From NCBI GenBank assembly GCA_963675595.2, contig CAXXLZ010000002.1, positions 1,792,001-1,856,000 of the forward strand: 64,000 bases of DNA, read 5' to 3'. Numbering within the stretch: the stretch's first letter is position 1; each line of letters starts with the position of its first letter. The position numbers and the translations under genes are program-made. The notes below the pieces were generated by a model, which had not been told where the DNA came from, did not search any database, and saw only the letters and a list, made by a program, of their open reading frames with translations. Below are positions 27,625-35,168 of the stretch, in pieces. Source of the DNA: Thermodesulfobacteriota bacterium. GTDB taxonomy: Bacteria > Desulfobacterota > Desulfarculia > JACQYL01.

Positions 27625-27993
27625 TCAGATTTGGTGCGCACCGGGCATGGTGCGTTCCGCCGCACTTCCTTCCACAAAGGTGTGTTTCTTCTTTAACGTA
27701 TGGTGTGTGGCCAGGGAGTACTCTTCGATTTCCGTGGGACTTTCCAGGTAGGGCTGGATCTTGGCTTCGTTGGCGATCCGCATGGGACTCTCTTTCCATT
27801 CGTGCCAGTTTTCCAGACCGAGCCATTCACTGACCACGACCACCCGTTGAGGATCATTCTGATCGATGAGCGTCCTGCCGGATACGTAGCCTCTTTGCTG
27901 GACGGCCTCCCCGCGGAGCTTGTTCAGGAGGGCGAAAACCTCCATCGCCCTTCCGGCCTTGATTCGTCTTTTGATCAATACGGTGACCACCAT
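27625..27993 (-). CDS. Antibiotic biosynthesis monooxygenase (ABM) family protein
   Basis: VLIKRRIK...QRGYVSGRTL...VVVSEWLGLENWHEW. ATG at 27993 follows a purine-rich RBS. Confidence 0.75.
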   Translation of the reverse strand: MVVTVLIKRRIKAGRAMEVFALLNKLRGEAVQQRGYVSGRTLIDQNDPQRVVVVSEWLGLENWHEWKESPMRIANEAKIQPYLESPTEIEEYSLATHHTLKKKHTFVEGSAAERTMPGAHQI

Positions 27994-28403
27994 GGCCTGC
28001 CCCCTTTCTTTGGAATGGAAACCACGTTCGACCCATAACTGCCTATACAAAATTATAGTCAACCCACCCCGGATCCGGCAAGATTTCTCTTGAACCGACG
28101 TCAAAAGGCGTGAAAGCCGTTCCGCCCCGGAGGTTTCTTTGTGTTGGGAAACGCCTAAGGCTTGACGGATGGAAAGGATTGTTCTAGGCTTTTTTTCGTC
28201 CAAAAGGCTCGCATCCATGAAAGCCCCATACATGCCTTTTACCGTTCAGTCTTCACCAGGGGAGGACGACCTTGTTGTCGCCCTTTAGACGCGTTCCACC
28301 GCCGTCCGCGAGACTCCATGAACCGCCATACGCCCATCCCGGTCTAGCGGCGGTGGGTGTCGCGGGGGCCAGGTGGTTGCCTCATTCCGGTCTGGTGAGC
28401 CCC

Positions 28404-28703
28404 ATGTTTTCCCAAGTCTCCGAATTGATCGAATTGTTTAAAATCCGCCTAAGGGCAGGACAAGATAGGCAAGTGGACGCCTTTCGGACACTGGAAAGCG
28501 GGACCGTGGAAGAATTCGTGGTGGTGGAAATCGCCGAGGGAGTCAAGAAACTACTTTTTCGAGTCTGGCCCATATTCTACACCGATCGTCCGCGTATTGA
28601 ATACAGGGTCTATGCCCGTGACCCGAGCGTGGAAAACCTGGTAACGGATGTGCTGATGCTGGGAGCGCAGGCTCGGAACGCCCGACTGGTTCTGAAAGAC
28701 TAG
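28404..28703 (+). CDS. Hypothetical 99-aa protein, first gene of the MoxR-vWA operon
   Basis: Protein-like composition from ATG 28404. Co-oriented with the AAA gene and about 60 bp upstream of it. Confidence 0.6.
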   Translation: MFSQVSELIELFKIRLRAGQDRQVDAFRTLESGTVEEFVVVEIAEGVKKLLFRVWPIFYTDRPRIEYRVYARDPSVENLVTDVLMLGAQARNARLVLKD

Positions 28704-28762
28704 AGGACGGGGGCGAACGCATTCACAACCTGAAGCCGGTTCCGTCCGGAACCTGGAGTCCC

Positions 28763-30103
28763 ATGTCCCGGTCGTCCTTTCGAAAGATCGCTCAAGGCCT
28801 TTACGACTTCATCGCGGAGGACCTTTACCTGAACCGCCGTGACCTGGAGGTTCATGGGAACCGGTTCAACGCGTCCCTCTTATTCAGTCTCCTTACCGGC
28901 CTCTGCGGGGGAAGAATCCTGTTGGTGGGCGAACCCGGGATGGGCAAGACCACGTCGGCCGAGTATGTGAGCTCCCTTGTTTACCGGCTGCCCATTGAAG
29001 TGGTGTGGAAGGCCGAAATTTCGGGACATCCCGAACAGACCGAAGAAAAAATCGTGGGCCGCCCCGATCTGGGAAGTCTTAACCGGGGTCGGGAAGTCGT
29101 CGTATGGTCCTACTTCACTCTGCTGCCGAACAAGATCGTTGATGAAATCAACCGGCTGCCGGAAACCAAGCAAAGCCTGATCCTTGACGGAGTGGATCGC
29201 GGAAAATGGGAATATTTGAATGAATCGGTGATCAATCCGGAGTTCTGTCTTTTCGCCACCGCCAATTACCAGGATCGGGGGACTCATACCATCATCCCTC
29301 CCCTGCTGGATCGTTTCGACGTCTTGGCGGAGTCCAAGCATCCCGGGGCGAATTTGGCCTACCACATCGGCGGTAACGGCAAACGGGTTTCGCTTCTGCG
29401 GGACCCGGAACTGGAACGGGATTTCCATGAGGTCCTGACCTCATTCGCGCCTTACAAGGATCGCATGGATGAAATCGAAACCTTGAGCGGTCGGTTTGGG
29501 TCCCGTTTGACCGCGCAAGCCGGCTTGCCTACTTTCTCAAGGGCCGACCGCCAAAGCATCAGGGACGATATTTCCTCGATCCCTTGCGACCTGGACGCCA
29601 ACGCCTTCCTGAGATTCGCCATCAGCGAGCTTTCCTTCTGCCACGTATTTGGGCAAAAACGGTCCAATGAGGTTTGCGAAGAAGGATGCCATTTCTCTCA
29701 ATACCTCTGCCACGCGGTGCACAACTGCGTTTCCAACCGACTTCCCTTAAGCGCTCGGAATTACGCCCGCGCCCTGGCTTGGTTGTTGGGGCACGAACAA
29801 GTCGACGTCGGGCACCTGACCGCTGTTCTTCCCCACTGTCTGGCTCATCGAATTCAGTGGAAGGAGGAGTTTCTTGCCCGCCGGACAAAGGAGGCAAGAA
29901 GCGATCCCGTGCCCTTGCACATGGCACGACGGGCCGTCGGGGACATGCATCGCCGCTATACGGAGCAATCGGACCTCGTGAAAGACGCACTGGCCAAGGC
30001 TTTTCTAATTCTGGAGGAAGGAACCGGAGAACCGATCCGGGGCGAGCATCCCCTGTTCTGGGAAATCCGAAGAGACCTTGGGGAGGAGTTCAAAGCGGAA
30101 TGA
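28763..30103 (+). CDS. MoxR-like AAA+ ATPase with Cys/His-rich insert
   Basis: Walker A GEPGMGKT, Walker B IVDEINR, sensor I ATAN and arginine finger LLDRF. Insert CHVFGQKRSNEVCEEGCHFSQYLCHAVHNC. Confidence 0.88.
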   Translation: MSRSSFRKIAQGLYDFIAEDLYLNRRDLEVHGNRFNASLLFSLLTGLCGGRILLVGEPGMGKTTSAEYVSSLVYRLPIEVVWKAEISGHPEQTEEKIVGRPDLGSLNRGREVVVWSYFTLLPNKIVDEINRLPETKQSLILDGVDRGKWEYLNESVINPEFCLFATANYQDRGTHTIIPPLLDRFDVLAESKHPGANLAYHIGGNGKRVSLLRDPELERDFHEVLTSFAPYKDRMDEIETLSGRFGSRLTAQAGLPTFSRADRQSIRDDISSIPCDLDANAFLRFAISELSFCHVFGQKRSNEVCEEGCHFSQYLCHAVHNCVSNRLPLSARNYARALAWLLGHEQVDVGHLTAVLPHCLAHRIQWKEEFLARRTKEARSDPVPLHMARRAVGDMHRRYTEQSDLVKDALAKAFLILEEGTGEPIRGEHPLFWEIRRDLGEEFKAE

Positions 30104-30798
30104 GGAACCCTTTTTACGACTTCGGGCCGGACCGCTATGTAAGGCAAAAGGGAGCCGCCGAATCCTCCATGCGGAACAGGGAAAGGATTCTTGATCGGCT
30201 GATGAACGGCTATCGTCGGCTCATCGACGAGGAGGCTCAAAACCTGTTATGGCCTGTGGAACACGAACGAATTCTGAGAGCCTACACCGCTTCGATGGAA
30301 AGAATTGCAGATTTCATCCCCGAGGCCGGGGACATCGAGGAGTTTTGTGCCTTGTTGGATGGGGATGAATCGTCTCTGTGGGTTCCCGGACCCGCCGGAG
30401 TCTTTCTGTCCGCCCTGGTGAACGCTTCATCGGAAACGAAGCTGGAACTCAGGCTCAAAGACTATGGGCGGCGGTTCCACTTTTTGGGTTATCTCCTGCC
30501 CGAAGGCAAGACTCTGGAACTGAACGGAGATGCGGGAGATTTCTGCGGAGCCGCTCTTGACGGAGGCCGACTGGTGGTTGGCGGATCCACCGGTGATTGG
30601 TGCGGGGCCGGTATGTTGCGGGGAACAGTGCTCATCCGTGGGGATTCCGGCGAACACACGGGAATCTGGATGCAAGGCGGCATCATCCACGTGGACGGCC
30701 CCATCCGGGGCATGGGCGAGCCCCGATTCGGAGGGGAGATTCGGACCGGGGAGCCCGACTCCTCCGAAGAAGGCGCCGGGGCGACCTCTTCCTGCTAA
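30100..30798 (+). CDS. GXGXG-repeat (FwdC/GltB C-terminal-like) beta-helix protein with helical N-terminal domain
   Basis: GVFLSALVN followed by repeats NGDAGDFCGAALDGG, GGSTGDWCGAGMLRG, GDSGEHTGIWMQGG and DGPIRGMG. ATGA overlap with the AAA stop. Confidence 0.78.
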   Translation: MRNPFYDFGPDRYVRQKGAAESSMRNRERILDRLMNGYRRLIDEEAQNLLWPVEHERILRAYTASMERIADFIPEAGDIEEFCALLDGDESSLWVPGPAGVFLSALVNASSETKLELRLKDYGRRFHFLGYLLPEGKTLELNGDAGDFCGAALDGGRLVVGGSTGDWCGAGMLRGTVLIRGDSGEHTGIWMQGGIIHVDGPIRGMGEPRFGGEIRTGEPDSSEEGAGATSSC

Positions 30799-30881
30799 TG
30801 TCCGCCGTGCGAATTCACATCGCCTGAGACGTGCTCTTCGATCACCTCGAGCGAACGTCCCGGGGATGTTGGGATCGAGTC

Positions 30882-32462
30882 ATGCCCGACCTCGATAGAA
30901 TCCTTGAGGAAAGCTGGCGCCGTGTACGGCGGAAACATCTGTTCCCCGAACTGCCGGCACCCGTTTGGTCGGATGGGGACGACCGAGTGGGCCTGGACGT
31001 GCGCCGAAAGAGGATCCATCTTTCCCGGCCCTTCGTTCTCAGCGCTTCTCCGGAACTGGAAAACCATGAAGTCGTCGAGGGACTTCTGGACCACGCGGTT
31101 TCCCACCACACCTTCTGTCCCTGGAATTTTGCGGTACATTTGAGACTCTACGGCAGAGCCAAAGCCGTCCTGCGCAAGAAGGAAACGGCCTTGCGCGCCC
31201 TGGACGCCTTTATGGACGTTGCGGCGGACACCTATTGCGTAAACGCCAAGACCGGTCCTCTTCCCAAGATTTACCGCCACCTCTCCAGAAGCCCCTTGGA
31301 CGAAATTCTGCACGGCGTCTACCAGGAGCTGTGGCAGGTGGACCTGGGCATCGCCGGAACTTCCGATCTTTGCCGCCGCCTGAGCCGACTTCCCTATCTG
31401 GACCGTAGGAAATGGGACGATTCCGTTACCCGTTTCAGCAAATTGCTGCGACCGATTCTGGAAGAGACGGCTCGGGACTCCGGAGACGCCCCATGTGCCA
31501 TGGGTCGCCACGGGCTGTCCCGGTACGCTCCCGACGATATCGCCGCCGGCCTCGAACAGCTTGCCGCGGAATCGTCGGGACCTTCGGAATTCATTGAACT
31601 GGTGACCGATTTCCAGGATGAGATTCACGCGGCCGCCGAAGGATCGAGAAGCGGAATGGGCAGAGGAACGGGCCGTACCTTCAGCGCGGACAGGCTCTAC
31701 TATATGAAGCTGGCGGAAAGCTTCTCGCTCCCCGTACGCCGGATCACGACCGAACTGTCGGGTTCGCTCTATCCCCATCACCATACGCCTTGGGAAGCGG
31801 GGCAGCCCGTGCGGGACATGGACCCTTGGACCAGTTTTGGAAAGATTCTTCCCGGTATCACCCAAACCTGGACCCGAGTGGAAGGCCGGATTTCAGGACC
31901 CGAACAGAAGGTGCCCGATTGTCTCATCGTCATCGACTCTTCCGCCAGCATGAAGAATCCCGCCTTATGTCTGTCGCACGCCGTTCTTGGAGCGGCATGC
32001 GCGTGCGATGCCTATTTGAGGAACGGGGCCGAGGTAGCGGTATACAACTTCAGCGACGCTTCCGCGGGCGGAAAACGGCTCTTGCCGTTTTCCCGCAACC
32101 GAGAAGAAATCTACGAAACCCTTTGCCACTTTTTCGGAGGAGGCACCCGCATCCGACCGGAAGATATGGAACCCCTCCAGACCTCGCCTCCTGCAGACCT
32201 GTTTCTGATCACGGACATGCAGTTGACCAATCTGGACGTATTAATCCAATACCTGACCACCTGTCGAAATCGGGTCACCGCCGTTCATATCGGCATGAAC
32301 GAACAGATACACTCGTTTCGCGGGTCCGTCCAAGGTCGGAACAACGTGGACGTGCACGCCGTGGAACGTATGGAAGACATCCCCCGCATCGTTTTGGGGA
32401 AAGTCGGAGAGTATTTGGCCATACGGGAACCATTCCAAACTACGTCGGGAGGCAAGCCATGA
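30882..32462 (+). CDS. vWA-domain protein with degenerate N-terminal HExxH metallopeptidase-like domain
   Basis: LLDHAVSHH in place of HExxH. MIDAS-like IVIDSSAS, YNFS, GGGT and LITD. Confidence 0.8.
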   Translation: MPDLDRILEESWRRVRRKHLFPELPAPVWSDGDDRVGLDVRRKRIHLSRPFVLSASPELENHEVVEGLLDHAVSHHTFCPWNFAVHLRLYGRAKAVLRKKETALRALDAFMDVAADTYCVNAKTGPLPKIYRHLSRSPLDEILHGVYQELWQVDLGIAGTSDLCRRLSRLPYLDRRKWDDSVTRFSKLLRPILEETARDSGDAPCAMGRHGLSRYAPDDIAAGLEQLAAESSGPSEFIELVTDFQDEIHAAAEGSRSGMGRGTGRTFSADRLYYMKLAESFSLPVRRITTELSGSLYPHHHTPWEAGQPVRDMDPWTSFGKILPGITQTWTRVEGRISGPEQKVPDCLIVIDSSASMKNPALCLSHAVLGAACACDAYLRNGAEVAVYNFSDASAGGKRLLPFSRNREEIYETLCHFFGGGTRIRPEDMEPLQTSPPADLFLITDMQLTNLDVLIQYLTTCRNRVTAVHIGMNEQIHSFRGSVQGRNNVDVHAVERMEDIPRIVLGKVGEYLAIREPFQTTSGGKP

Positions 32463-32788
32463 CGTTGAATATCACCGCCAAGAATTTCGAGGAAGAAGTG
32501 ATCGGTTCGGACATTCCGGTCCTGGTGGATTTCTGGGCGCCCAACTGCTCCACCTGCATCGCGCTGAACAGCTTCGTGGACAAGCTGGCGAAAGATTTGG
32601 CGGATCGGCTCAAGGTGGTCAAGGTGAACGCCCTGTCGGACCGAAAAATCTGTGAGATGGCCGACGTGCTTTCAGTGCCGACGTTCATCCTATATCGGAA
32701 CGGAAAAGAGGAGAAGCGGCTGCTTAAGGACGCACCGCTCACGCTGGAAAAGATTCAGGAAATGGCCAGGGAAGCGGTGGGCGATTGA
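32459..32788 (+). CDS. Thioredoxin with atypical WAPNCSTC active site
   Basis: NFEEEVI...PVLVDFWAPNCSTC...VKVN...VPTF. ATGA overlap with the vWA stop. Confidence 0.88.
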   Translation: MTLNITAKNFEEEVIGSDIPVLVDFWAPNCSTCIALNSFVDKLAKDLADRLKVVKVNALSDRKICEMADVLSVPTFILYRNGKEEKRLLKDAPLTLEKIQEMAREAVGD

Positions 32789-32885: not shown

Positions 32886-33131
32886 TCATCGGAACGCTTT
32901 TCCGGGCGAGTCTTTTTCCTGGAAATAGGTGAGCTCCCAGGTCCACGTCTCCGTTTCGTGGCGAAGGATGTAGGTCGCCCCATCGTCGCCGATCACTTTG
33001 AAATATCGATGGTCCGGGGATATCCATCGGTCCGACACTTCGGCGACTTCGATTCTTCGGTCACCGATCCGGAAACATCGGGGGGATTCCTCTCCCCGAT
33101 GTCCCGCATAACATTCCACTTTGATCTTCAT
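32886..33131 (-). CDS. Small conserved hypothetical protein (DUF6504-like)
   Basis: KVECYAGHRGEESPRCF...DRWISPDHRYFKV...YILRH...WEL pattern, recalled as a widespread small beta protein. Confidence 0.7.
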   Translation of the reverse strand: MKIKVECYAGHRGEESPRCFRIGDRRIEVAEVSDRWISPDHRYFKVIGDDGATYILRHETETWTWELTYFQEKDSPGKAFR

Positions 33132-33233: not shown

Positions 33234-34937
33234 TCATCGTGAATCAATGGCCGCGTTATCCGGTTGGCCCAGTTCCCGGCGGCACGAGGCGATGAATCGC
33301 CCGGCTTGCTCCGAAGCGGAAAACGGCGACAATTTCCTCAGCGCGTTGCCGTATTCTCCGAGATTCATATAACTGACGCCGAGGCAAACGGCCAGGTCTT
33401 CATTTTCCGGAAACCGATCCGTTCCCCTTTCGAGCACCTCGATGGAATCACGAAAATCCCGTCGCCTCTGCAACAGCATACCCAGGCCCAGATAAGCTCT
33501 CGCGTCCGGCGCATATTTGAGTGCTTTCCGGAAAAGCAGTTCCGCGGTTTCCTCCTTGTTGCTCACCGCGTCGACTTTCGCGTAATCACCGTGGCTGAAG
33601 GTCAGCCCCAGTCTCGAAAGAAAGTCGGCATGCATGGAATACAGCTCCGGCAGGTCCGCCAACTCCACCGACGCGGCGTATTCGTGGAGATTTCCGAAAA
33701 ACTCGTTTCTCAATTCCTCCCCGAAGGCCAGAACCTCCTCTTTGGACAATCCGGGATCGGTTTCCCAGTACATGATATCCTCGATGGGATTGAGCCAGAC
33801 GTCGTCCGTGGCTCCGGTCCTTTTGAGGAAATCGTCGTACAAGGTGGTGCCTGGAAAGATGTCCAAAATATAGAAGATAGCACCGAGCGGGCGGATGCGA
33901 TGCATGAGGGACACGGTTTCACGAATGGTTTCCCGCGTCTCTCCCGGGCACCCGTAAATGAAGTAGGCGCGCGGCAGAATCCCGTAGCGCGTGGTCAGCC
34001 GGAAAGCCCGTTCGATGTTCTCGTCGCTCGTTTCGCGGCCCAAAGCCCGTCGGATTTGGGGGGATCCGCTTTCCACGCCATAGCTGATCTGGATGCATCC
34101 CGCCCTTCTCATCCAGTAGAGGACGTCTTCGTCCACGTGGTTCACATGGGAAATCGCATACCATTGCACATCCAACTCCCGCCGGACAATCTCCCGGCAG
34201 ACGGCAACGGCGTGGTCTTTGTTCAGAGTGAACATATCGTCGGACACGTAGAAGAAGGATTCTCCTTTTTCCCGCAAAGTCTTTATTTGGGACACGAAGT
34301 AGTCCGGAGAATGGAATCGGACCTGTTTCCTCCACCAGCGAGGAGAACCGCAGTAGACGCATTTCCCGACGCATCCCCTCGAGGAAATCAGGTGACGAAA
34401 AGAGCTCATTTGCGCAGGGTCCGGCAATTCGTCCAGGTTGCGAACGGGTGGGGCGTCCTCCATCCGAACCACCCGATCCTCTTTCCGGAACGCGATGCCT
34501 TTCAGGCTCCCGGGATCGCCCCCCTTCTCCAGCAAGGCGGCCAACGCCGGGAGAGTGATTTCGCCCTCTCCGATCACCACGAAATCGATGACCGGAAACC
34601 GGGTCAGAAAATGTTCCCAGAGAAAGGTGGGGGCGGGTCCGCCGAAGACAACCCGCGTCTTGGGTTCGACCTTCTTGACGATATGTGCGATTTCCAGGCC
34701 GCCCCAGCGGTTGGCATTGAAAATGGACAGTCCCACAAGGTCCGGTTTTTTCTCCTTTATGGCGAACTCCATTTGCTCCGACCGGCCCTTCATGTGGTGC
34801 CAGTTCAACACCTCGACGTCGTGGCCGTCCTTCAGAAGCAACGCCGACAGGGTCCAAAGGCCGATGGGGACCGTTTGCGCGTCCTCCGCCTGGACCCGTT
34901 CATCCAAAGTATATGGGTAGATAAGCAAAATCTTCAC
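33234..34937 (-). CDS. B12-binding radical SAM protein with C-terminal TPR
   Basis: KILLIYP, VFGGP, GEGE, SRGCVGKCVYC, GVESGS and C-terminal TPRs. GTG start at 34937. Confidence 0.9.
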   Translation of the reverse strand: MKILLIYPYTLDERVQAEDAQTVPIGLWTLSALLLKDGHDVEVLNWHHMKGRSEQMEFAIKEKKPDLVGLSIFNANRWGGLEIAHIVKKVEPKTRVVFGGPAPTFLWEHFLTRFPVIDFVVIGEGEITLPALAALLEKGGDPGSLKGIAFRKEDRVVRMEDAPPVRNLDELPDPAQMSSFRHLISSRGCVGKCVYCGSPRWWRKQVRFHSPDYFVSQIKTLREKGESFFYVSDDMFTLNKDHAVAVCREIVRRELDVQWYAISHVNHVDEDVLYWMRRAGCIQISYGVESGSPQIRRALGRETSDENIERAFRLTTRYGILPRAYFIYGCPGETRETIRETVSLMHRIRPLGAIFYILDIFPGTTLYDDFLKRTGATDDVWLNPIEDIMYWETDPGLSKEEVLAFGEELRNEFFGNLHEYAASVELADLPELYSMHADFLSRLGLTFSHGDYAKVDAVSNKEETAELLFRKALKYAPDARAYLGLGMLLQRRRDFRDSIEVLERGTDRFPENEDLAVCLGVSYMNLGEYGNALRKLSPFSASEQAGRFIASCRRELGQPDNAAIDSR

Positions 34938-35168
34938 GGACTCTTCCCCTTTCCATCCTCTTTCCATACACCAACGAATAGCCTCCCGCAACCGGCGCAG
35001 ACATCGCCGCGCCGCACCCGCCGGCCGAGGAGTCTCCGATTAGCGCAAGTCCGTAGCTCTGGCTCTTCAGCCGGTGATCGGCGCCAAGCCGAAGCCTATC
35101 TATTTGTTATTATGATAAAACTATTAATTGAGCACGTGATGGAACAGGCGAAGGAGCGAAGTTATGTT

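Follow-up and report, generated by a model that had tools for sequence, protein, structure and literature searches.

An undescribed gene trio for a MoxR-like AAA+ ATPase, a GXGXG beta-helix protein and a vWA protein in Thermodesulfobacteriota and archaea

A stretch of 64,000 nt from the genome of a Thermodesulfobacteriota bacterium (assembly GCA_963675595.2, contig CAXXLZ010000002.1, positions 1,792,001 to 1,856,000; hereafter the window) contains a run of five genes on the plus strand. Three of them encode a divergent MoxR/ChlI-class AAA+ ATPase, a GXGXG beta-helix protein, and a protein with a zincin-like N-terminal domain and a C-terminal von Willebrand factor A (vWA) domain, and this trio is a real, conserved and undescribed variant of the MoxR–vWA theme. 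A preliminary description, made from the sequence alone, had proposed that such genes form an uncharacterised module, and their co-occurrence was borne out in bacterial, archaeal and Nitrospirota loci. No description of a MoxR/vWA/GXGXG trio was found in the literature, although supplements, which lay outside the search, might list such neighbourhoods.

Composition and distribution of the conserved unit

The set of close loci (n = 82) consisted of the best 80 of 349 ATPase relatives, taken with one genome per species, and two loci from close relatives of the window's genome, one of which probably duplicates a scan locus. The best 80 relatives were 52–65% identical to the window ATPase, and those with informative titles belonged mostly to Thermodesulfobacteriota (Desulfobacterales, Desulfarculaceae, Syntrophaceae, Syntrophobacterales); two Latescibacterota and one Binatia were also among them. 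By tblastn, the ATPase gene was found in 82/82 loci, the GXGXG gene in 81 and the vWA gene in 75. Each missing GXGXG or vWA gene was at a contig end; wherever a close locus had room for all three genes (75 loci), none was missing. The thioredoxin gene that ends the run in the window was beside the module in 0/82 loci, and the small 99-aa gene that begins it was detected in six (6/77 by hidden Markov model (HMM) in loci with at least 400 nt upstream), directly upstream of the ATPase gene where present. Clustering of all flanking open reading frames (ORFs) in 83 bacterial loci (the 82 and the window) and 21 archaeal loci revealed nothing conserved beyond the trio, and the most frequent extra neighbour, in 14 of about 82 loci, reflects local synteny in one sub-clade. 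Given these distributions, the conserved unit consists of three genes (ATPase, GXGXG and vWA) rather than five, and the thioredoxin and 99-aa genes are lineage-specific local passengers.

The layout read by the preliminary description was confirmed in the sequence, with five co-oriented genes between flanking genes on the minus strand and ATGA stop/start overlaps joining the ATPase gene to the GXGXG gene (30100–30103) and the vWA gene to the thioredoxin gene (32459–32462). It could thus be argued that all five genes form one redox-controlled operon with the thioredoxin and the 99-aa protein as integral subunits, especially since the second overlap couples the vWA gene to the thioredoxin gene, the 99-aa gene lies only 59 nt upstream of the ATPase gene on the same strand, and a conserved cysteine cluster in the ATPase is a possible thioredoxin target. 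Nevertheless, this interpretation is distinctly improbable, and the claim of a single five-gene system did not survive the comparison: the thioredoxin gene was absent beside all 82 related modules, the 99-aa gene was limited to a small sub-lineage, and in nearly every host the module plainly needs neither of them. The prediction that the genes recur together in other genomes was accordingly right for the ATPase, GXGXG and vWA genes and wrong for the other two.

Among 1.84 billion proteins, the ATPase profile matched 582 cluster representatives at E ≤1e-3 and 213 at E ≤1e-30, indicating a delimited family that does not merge into mainstream MoxR proteins. The family was carried by 46 of 401 genomes of the phylum, among them every one sampled in three families (12/12, 6/6 and 6/6), whereas other families had none (0/12 to 0/15). 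In the window's genome the module is single-copy. In the archaeal phylum of an Archaeoglobales fusion protein described below, 25 of 301 genomes matched the ATPase profile at three levels of divergence, and all three genes were present in 16 of the 21 archaeal loci. A scan with an ATPase of a second subfamily yielded 48 loci from Archaeoglobus, Archaeoglobales, Nitrospirota (Thermodesulfovibrionales), Syntrophobacteria, Desulfobacteraceae, Methanocellales and one Woesearchaeote; where the sequence ran on for at least 2500 nt past the ATPase gene (43 loci), 33 had the trio, 26 of these 33 in the order ATPase–vWA–GXGXG. Many of these loci coincide with the 21 archaeal ones, which makes the two counts interdependent. 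Since the order is ATPase–GXGXG–vWA in one subfamily and ATPase–vWA–GXGXG in the other, linkage of the trio survives rearrangement.

A midpoint-rooted FastTree phylogeny of 149 ATPases, in which some rows duplicate Methanocellales loci and sampling is uneven, placed archaeal lineages at the base, with several key nodes poorly supported. In the first subfamily, archaeal sequences are sister to 82 bacterial ones (clade support 0.981, the split itself weak). The second comprises a monophyletic bacterial group (support 0.995) inside an archaeal grade with weak internal nodes, and a third group, on a long branch, is probably Methanothrix-like, a label drawn only from neighbouring acetyl-CoA synthetase paralogues. 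Archaeal versions of the module, with the ATPase and partner genes together, exist as had been suspected. As to the archaeal pair MJ0812/MJ0811, to which the preliminary description likened the ATPase and vWA proteins, the single paper found with either name is an unrelated study of bile proteomics. The notion of an archaeal-type module in a bacterium agrees with the basal archaeal lineages, but not with the window's own clade, which is mainly bacterial.

Some MoxR-associated vWA systems function in biological conflict, and their peptidase effectors are often catalytically inactive and occasionally metallopeptidases, according to the available portion of Kaur et al. 2020 (PMC7159879). By analogy, the trio could act against phages or in other conflicts, its zincin-like domain being a dead effector and its beta-helix protein the sensor. 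A defence role is an alternative already raised in the preliminary description and one to which the patchy occurrence among close relatives of the window's genome (orthologue in 2/40) and the record of such systems with inactive effectors would both lend themselves. However, this is highly improbable. Searches against PADLOC-DB 2.0 returned only matches of P-loop length for the ATPase (IetA and TRIP13, E 0.004–0.03), which we regard as noise, and nothing for the other four proteins of the run. The neighbours of the locus in the window include no mobile-element or defence genes. In several families no sampled genome lacks the module, which is 52–65% identical across orders and sits among housekeeping genes. 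Moreover, the terms ‘beta-helix’ and ‘glutamate synthase’ have 0 occurrences in the available portion of the same survey (PMC7159879). Among the genes next to the module at other loci are gmk-like, rpoZ-like and YicC-like ones, identified by sequence only, and Pfam-confirmed genes for ribosomal protein S8e and MoaC. The single-copy, family-bound distribution and these neighbours suggest housekeeping-like inheritance, and the distribution is more in keeping with a cellular function fixed by lineage than with a mobile island of defence genes.

Several loci depart from the common pattern. Three metagenome-assembled genomes, titled Syntrophobacter sp., Syntrophaceae and Deltaproteobacteria, contained both trio subfamilies (contig pairs L076/L140, L044/L144 and L067/L152), and two genomes of the phylum (G530 and G347) had two ATPase matches each; two paralogous machines may serve different clients. 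Two GXGXG beta-helix proteins were encoded beside the ATPase and vWA genes in some Archaeoglobales-type loci (L121, L122, L139, L145 and L153). A radical S-adenosylmethionine (SAM) gene with a CxxxCxxC motif lay directly 5′ of the second-subfamily ATPase gene in 3 of the 21 archaeal loci (L122:7365-8282, L129:5053-5955 and L130:3778-4758), but tblastn did not find this gene in the bacterial loci or the window.

The three proteins

The ATPase showed an AAA core (AAA_5, E 4.7e-7, 30.3 bits against a cut-off of 22) and a MoxR-class lid (AAA_lid_2, E 7.2e-6, 26.1 bits against 22.7), with Walker A GEPGMGKT, the GHPEQTEEKIVGRPD loop, Walker B VDEINR, the sensor ATAN and an arginine in DRF. In alignments of 32 and 83 sequences, Walker A, the GHPEQTEEK loop, Walker B, sensor 1 and the arginine finger were invariant, and the protein is therefore predicted to be an active ATPase. 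With the AAA core, the intact catalytic residues, the AAA_lid_2 lid and an adjoining vWA partner gene in all 75 close loci with room, as well as in archaeal and Nitrospirota loci, it belongs to the MoxR class. Within that class its affinities are distant: AAA_3 (MRP-type) scored 18.8 bits, below the cut-off of 27, the Pfam scan gave no match to CbbQ_C or bpMoxR, and the best solved relative, 2r44, was reached at an E of only 0.0016–0.0037. Mg-chelatase ChlI/BchI was rejected as an identity, with TIGR02030 at 15.7 bits against a cut-off of 466.95 and only the lid aligning to 1g8p and 6l8d (E 0.2–0.3). On these scores the ATPase does not appear recognisable as an MRP, CGN or ChlI member.

The lid carries an insert with Cys293, Cys305, Cys309 (followed by His310), Cys316 and Cys322. 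Of these, Cys293, Cys305, Cys309 and Cys316, spaced C-x11-C-x3-C-x6-C, are present in 83/83 bacterial and 17/21 archaeal sequences and are wholly absent from more distant members of the ATPase family, an all-or-none pattern that would be typical of a metal site. In-frame stops in ATPase matches from genomes G258, G308, G347 and G377 were considered as selenocysteine codons; in G258 and G308, the two checked, the stop proved to be the one that ends the gene, lying where the match ends, and selenocysteine was rejected for these two. A distant ATPase relative of 1275 aa (P0261) is fused behind MgtE_N repeats, the N-terminal domain of a Mg2+ transporter, and this fusion hints at a link between the wider ATPase family and divalent-metal handling.

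The GXGXG protein matched PF01493 (E 2.5e-10, 40.7 bits against a cut-off of 32.5), and its AlphaFold 2 model (predicted local distance difference test score, pLDDT, 88.3) consists of a helical N-terminal domain at about residues 10–109 and a right-handed FwdC-like beta-helix at about 114–216. In Foldseek the beta-helix matched FwdC (5t5i_C) with probability 1.00 and a root-mean-square deviation of 2.0 over 114 columns, and FhcC and GltS also matched; a profile search of PDB sequences likewise recovered FmdC/FwdC (3.7e-21 to 7.7e-14) and GltS (4.8e-5). The protein was nevertheless rejected as FwdC itself, as it scored 50.6 against 130.65 bits and 38.5 against 340 bits for the equivalogs TIGR03122 and NF042910. 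Elsewhere the genome has two more ORFs with a GXGXG domain (658 and 781 aa; G000:C3:63874-64290 and G000:C2:2843230-2843664), which may be of the glutamate-synthase type.

The ATPase and GXGXG proteins are joined in nature by P0127, a 620-aa Archaeoglobales protein whose C-terminus is a GXGXG domain (BLAST E 2e-10, HMM 4.5e-18), and the gene that follows it encodes the vWA partner, 37% identical to that of the window (E 3e-121). Co-folding of the window's ATPase and GXGXG proteins from their own alignments scored 0.48 (runs 0.48, 0.42 and 0.49), with the best control at 0.02, at least 79% agreement in contacts between runs and a partner pLDDT of at least 74. Of 80 solved complexes used for calibration, 58 reached the mark, as did 2 of 110 mismatched pairs, but only 7 of those 80 did so at scores of up to 0.60, together with both mismatches. 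Since the natural fusion makes binding likely beforehand, we count the predicted complex as modest added support for binding of the two proteins. The GXGXG protein had been proposed as client or adaptor; the fusion and the co-fold favour an attached subunit or adaptor.

The vWA protein is composed of the zincin-like N-domain, a conserved linker and the vWA domain. The vWA assignment is weak by profile (VWA_2, E 0.004, below the Pfam cut-off), but it is backed by matches to vWA structures, including NorD, in fold comparison and by an intact metal-ion-dependent adhesion site (MIDAS; DSSAS...GGGT...ITD), whose DSSxS motif was found in all aligned sequences. The domain calls of the preliminary description were thereby upheld for this protein, as they were by Pfam and NCBIfam for the ATPase, GXGXG and thioredoxin proteins. 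In the structural model (mean pLDDT 65), residues 1–250 are well predicted; confidence drops under 50 at residues 255–342 and is moderate in the vWA domain. The linker coincides with about residues 255–342, includes the motifs GSLYP and SFGKIxPGI and, despite the low model confidence, is among the most conserved stretches. The N-domain resembles the minimal zincins 3e11_B and 2ejq_B; a PDB profile search with the alignment of this protein gave chance-level matches only.

The state of the zincin motif differs among lineages. The window's N-domain reads D-H-A-V-S-H...C-P, the family pattern being [D/H/E]-H-x3-H-x3-[C/H]-P; the putative metal ligands of its triad are His71, His75 and Cys79, numbered on the 526-aa form. 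In bacterial proteins the motif is H-[A/G/S]-x-x-H, with the catalytic glutamate in 0/188. All five first-subfamily archaeal proteins have HExxH; the second-subfamily archaeal proteins have HELNH or HELDH in five cases and HALNH in one, two more not aligning at the motif; and the four third-group proteins all have H-[L/I]-I-L-H, so that 10 of the 15 archaeal proteins aligned there carry the glutamate. The Cys-Pro four residues after the second histidine is invariant, and is His-Pro in the second subfamily, a Cys/His exchange that would be expected of a metal ligand. An active zincin metallopeptidase was rejected for the window protein, whose HAVSH lacks the catalytic glutamate, and the earlier call of a pseudo-peptidase holds in the window's clade. 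Peptidase chemistry appears to have been lost in the bacterial clade by exchange of glutamate for alanine, glycine or serine, and with this loss the N-domain would bind rather than cut.

These motif states bear on the possibility that the trio is an ATP-dependent processing protease, split but FtsH-like, in which the ring feeds the zincin domain and the bacterial forms are degenerate regulators or substrate traps. The HExxH of 5/5 first-subfamily and 5/6 aligned second-subfamily archaeal proteins and the likeness of the N-domain to minimal zincins would accord with it, and a neighbouring Protein Atlas cluster with Peptidase_M48 in 13% of its members offers a lead only. On the other hand, the glutamate is absent from all 188 bacterial proteins, from the second-subfamily protein with HALNH and from all four third-group proteins, and despite this loss the motifs of the ATPase, the MIDAS and the triad of His-His-Cys/His are invariant, which argues that the conserved function needs no peptide hydrolysis. 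MoxR-class rings are also known as remodellers rather than as unfoldase partners of proteases. We therefore consider a protease fairly unlikely.

Possible function and relation to known systems

We consider that the chances are about even that the trio works in the manner of NorQD, as a machine for maturation or metal insertion in which the beta-helix protein is a docking subunit and the client is encoded elsewhere. The NorQ–NorD pair, a MoxR AAA+ protein with a vWA partner that inserts non-haem FeB into nitric oxide reductase, is the closest working model. The available portion of a study of NorQD describes a vWA finger that reaches into the AAA+ pore and an ATP-driven twist of the NorD linker on which metal insertion depends (PMC13036017). 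By analogy, the ATPase of the trio would form a ring on which the vWA protein would dock, and ATP hydrolysis would pull or twist the conserved linker. The linker motion would in turn move the putatively metal-binding His-His-Cys N-domain, so that the client could be supplied with a metal or cofactor, delivered or let go by that domain, or could be remodelled. The beta-helix protein would sit on the ATPase as a surface for client docking, in the manner of the scaffold subunits FwdC and the GltS beta-helix. The trio differs from NorQ–NorD in that no nor genes surround it, the ATPase is not recognisably of the CGN type, with no CbbQ_C match, and a third, beta-helix subunit, a zincin-derived N-domain and a four-cysteine lid insert are present.

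Several observations weigh against this interpretation. What is observed directly is which parts the trio has and how they are conserved, together with the fusion and the state of each motif, whereas the ring, the engagement of its pore and the pulling of the linker are all inferred. No client emerged from the genes around the module, none of which is conserved beyond the trio. In 35 family members, Pfam zincin and DUF models (including DUF2201), considered up to an E of 1, gave no match except one Zincin_2 at 0.058. The HExxH kept by archaeal relatives leaves an ancestral activity of proteolysis, rather than metal delivery, as a possibility. The four lid cysteines could bind Zn or an Fe-S cluster or form disulfides, and the co-fold of the ATPase and GXGXG proteins is classed as ‘weak support’. 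The scarcity of the orthologue among close relatives of the window's genome is a further difficulty, in view of which this copy may have arrived by transfer. Carbon monoxide dehydrogenase/acetyl-CoA synthase was rejected as a candidate client because its CdhC subunit is found in 282 of the 401 phylum genomes, and in 40 of the 46 with the ATPase, which does not discriminate; the genomes, being related, are also not independent.

The closest relatives of the beta-helix half by profile and fold are FwdC/FmdC and FhcC of the formylmethanofuran dehydrogenase/Fhc complexes. The GXGXG protein is roughly half as large as FwdC, from which its helical N-domain also differs, and AAA+ and vWA genes adjoin its gene in place of fwdA, fwdB or fwdD. 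A more far-reaching version of the cofactor-insertion proposal, which we consider quite unlikely, would see in the trio an ancient machine, probably of archaeal origin, that matures a core anaerobic metalloenzyme and in which the switch from peptidase to chaperone took place independently several times. It would combine a ring that has its own Cys4 site for a metal or Fe-S cluster, a zincin-derived metallochaperone of the His-His-Cys kind tethered by the vWA domain, and a FwdC-like docking beta-helix, and its client could be, for example, an Mo/W enzyme of the Fwd/Fdh type or another complex with a GXGXG scaffold in sulfate reducers, syntrophs and methanogens.

Proteins with a zincin-like N-terminal domain and a vWA-like C-terminal domain (Pfam DUF2201_N/DUF2201) adjoin MoxR genes, and these resemble the trio in placing a metallopeptidase-like domain before a vWA domain beside a MoxR ATPase. 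They differ in that the DUF2201 models have no match in the 35-sequence alignment, while the trio has in addition the GXGXG subunit and a bacterial clade without the catalytic glutamate. The pairing of a MoxR-like AAA+ protein with a vWA protein is common, and seven named MoxR subfamilies (MRP, APE0892, RavA, CGN, APE2220/CoxD, PA2707 and YehL) are described as having vWA partners and a role as chaperones or in maturation in the available portion of one paper (PMC3893208). The window ATPase differs in that it falls below the AAA_3 (MRP-type) cut-off and reaches 2r44, the best solved MoxR, at an E of only about 1e-3, and in that its family profile, with 582 cluster representatives, does not draw in mainstream MoxR proteins.

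MoxR–vWA pairs are widespread as dedicated maturation motors, few of which have a known client, and the trio adds a well-delimited family to them. Its features would be an obligatory third, beta-helix subunit, a peptidase fold turned into a metal-binding module and a cysteine-liganded site in the ATPase lid. The trio is fixed in lineages of environmentally important anaerobes, namely Desulfobacterales, Desulfarculaceae, Syntrophaceae, Thermodesulfovibrionales, Archaeoglobus and Methanocellales, and possibly in Methanothrix, judged from neighbouring genes alone. The identity of the client could reveal a new step in the assembly of anaerobic metalloenzymes, and clear constructs for biochemistry are at hand in the fused protein and in the two alternative arrangements of the genes.

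Accessory and flanking genes in the window

The positions of the five genes and their neighbours are given in Table 1. Of the two possible starts of the vWA gene, the ATG is most likely, because a protein identical to that of the window is listed at 526 aa and begins there. A scan for promoters and terminators found sites no more commonly than in shuffled sequence.

Table 1. Genes of the locus and its flanks, by position in the window
Gene	Position	Strand	Product
ABM-domain gene, flank	27625-28233	-	202-aa ORF
Small accessory gene	28404-28703	+	99 aa from ATG; member of no known family
Core gene 1, divergent MoxR/ChlI-class AAA+ ATPase	28763-30103	+	446 aa; Pfam AAA_5 + AAA_lid_2
Core gene 2, GXGXG protein	30100-30798	+	232 aa; PF01493
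Core gene 3, zincin-like N-domain + linker + vWA	30882-32462 (or 30831-32462)	+	526 aa (ATG) / 543 aa (GTG)
Accessory gene, thioredoxin paralogue	32459-32788	+	109 aa; PF00085
81-aa ORF, flank	32886-33131	-	no Pfam family
B12/radical-SAM/TPR gene, flank	33234-34991	-	585 aa

The thioredoxin (PF00085, E 3.6e-21, 75.5 bits) has an active-site CxxC within the atypical sequence W-A-P-N-C-S-T-C, with CSTC in place of the CGPC of most relatives found, and it scores under the TrxA equivalog cut-offs. It is one of five thioredoxin-like matches in the genome, the other four being 33–35% identical to it, and its nearest relatives in a metagenome scan were at most 47% identical, with module genes beside 0 of 29 such loci. 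It thus appears to be a recruit specific to this genome and may keep cysteine sites reduced in this organism. The dedicated thioredoxin for redox control envisaged earlier is not supported, as the pairing was unique to this genome among everything searched.

The 99-aa protein had no match in Pfam, NCBIfam or PADLOC, and DUF2303-type matches in the Protein Atlas were not trusted, their recognition value of 1723 lying below the useful range. Its homologues align 5′ of the ATG (window 28272–28403, plus strand) and share the motif R-[ILF]-[YH]-L; as they extend upstream, the gene may start at the TTG at 28272 and encode 143 aa. It is a real gene, narrowly distributed in a small sub-lineage.

On the minus strand, the antibiotic biosynthesis monooxygenase (ABM) domain occupies only residues 83–150 of its ORF, and the true start of that gene may lie further downstream. 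Beyond the other end of the run, the 81-aa ORF sits between the thioredoxin gene and the radical-SAM gene, whose product, encoded just downstream of the run, combines B12-binding and radical-SAM domains with TPR repeats at its C-terminus.

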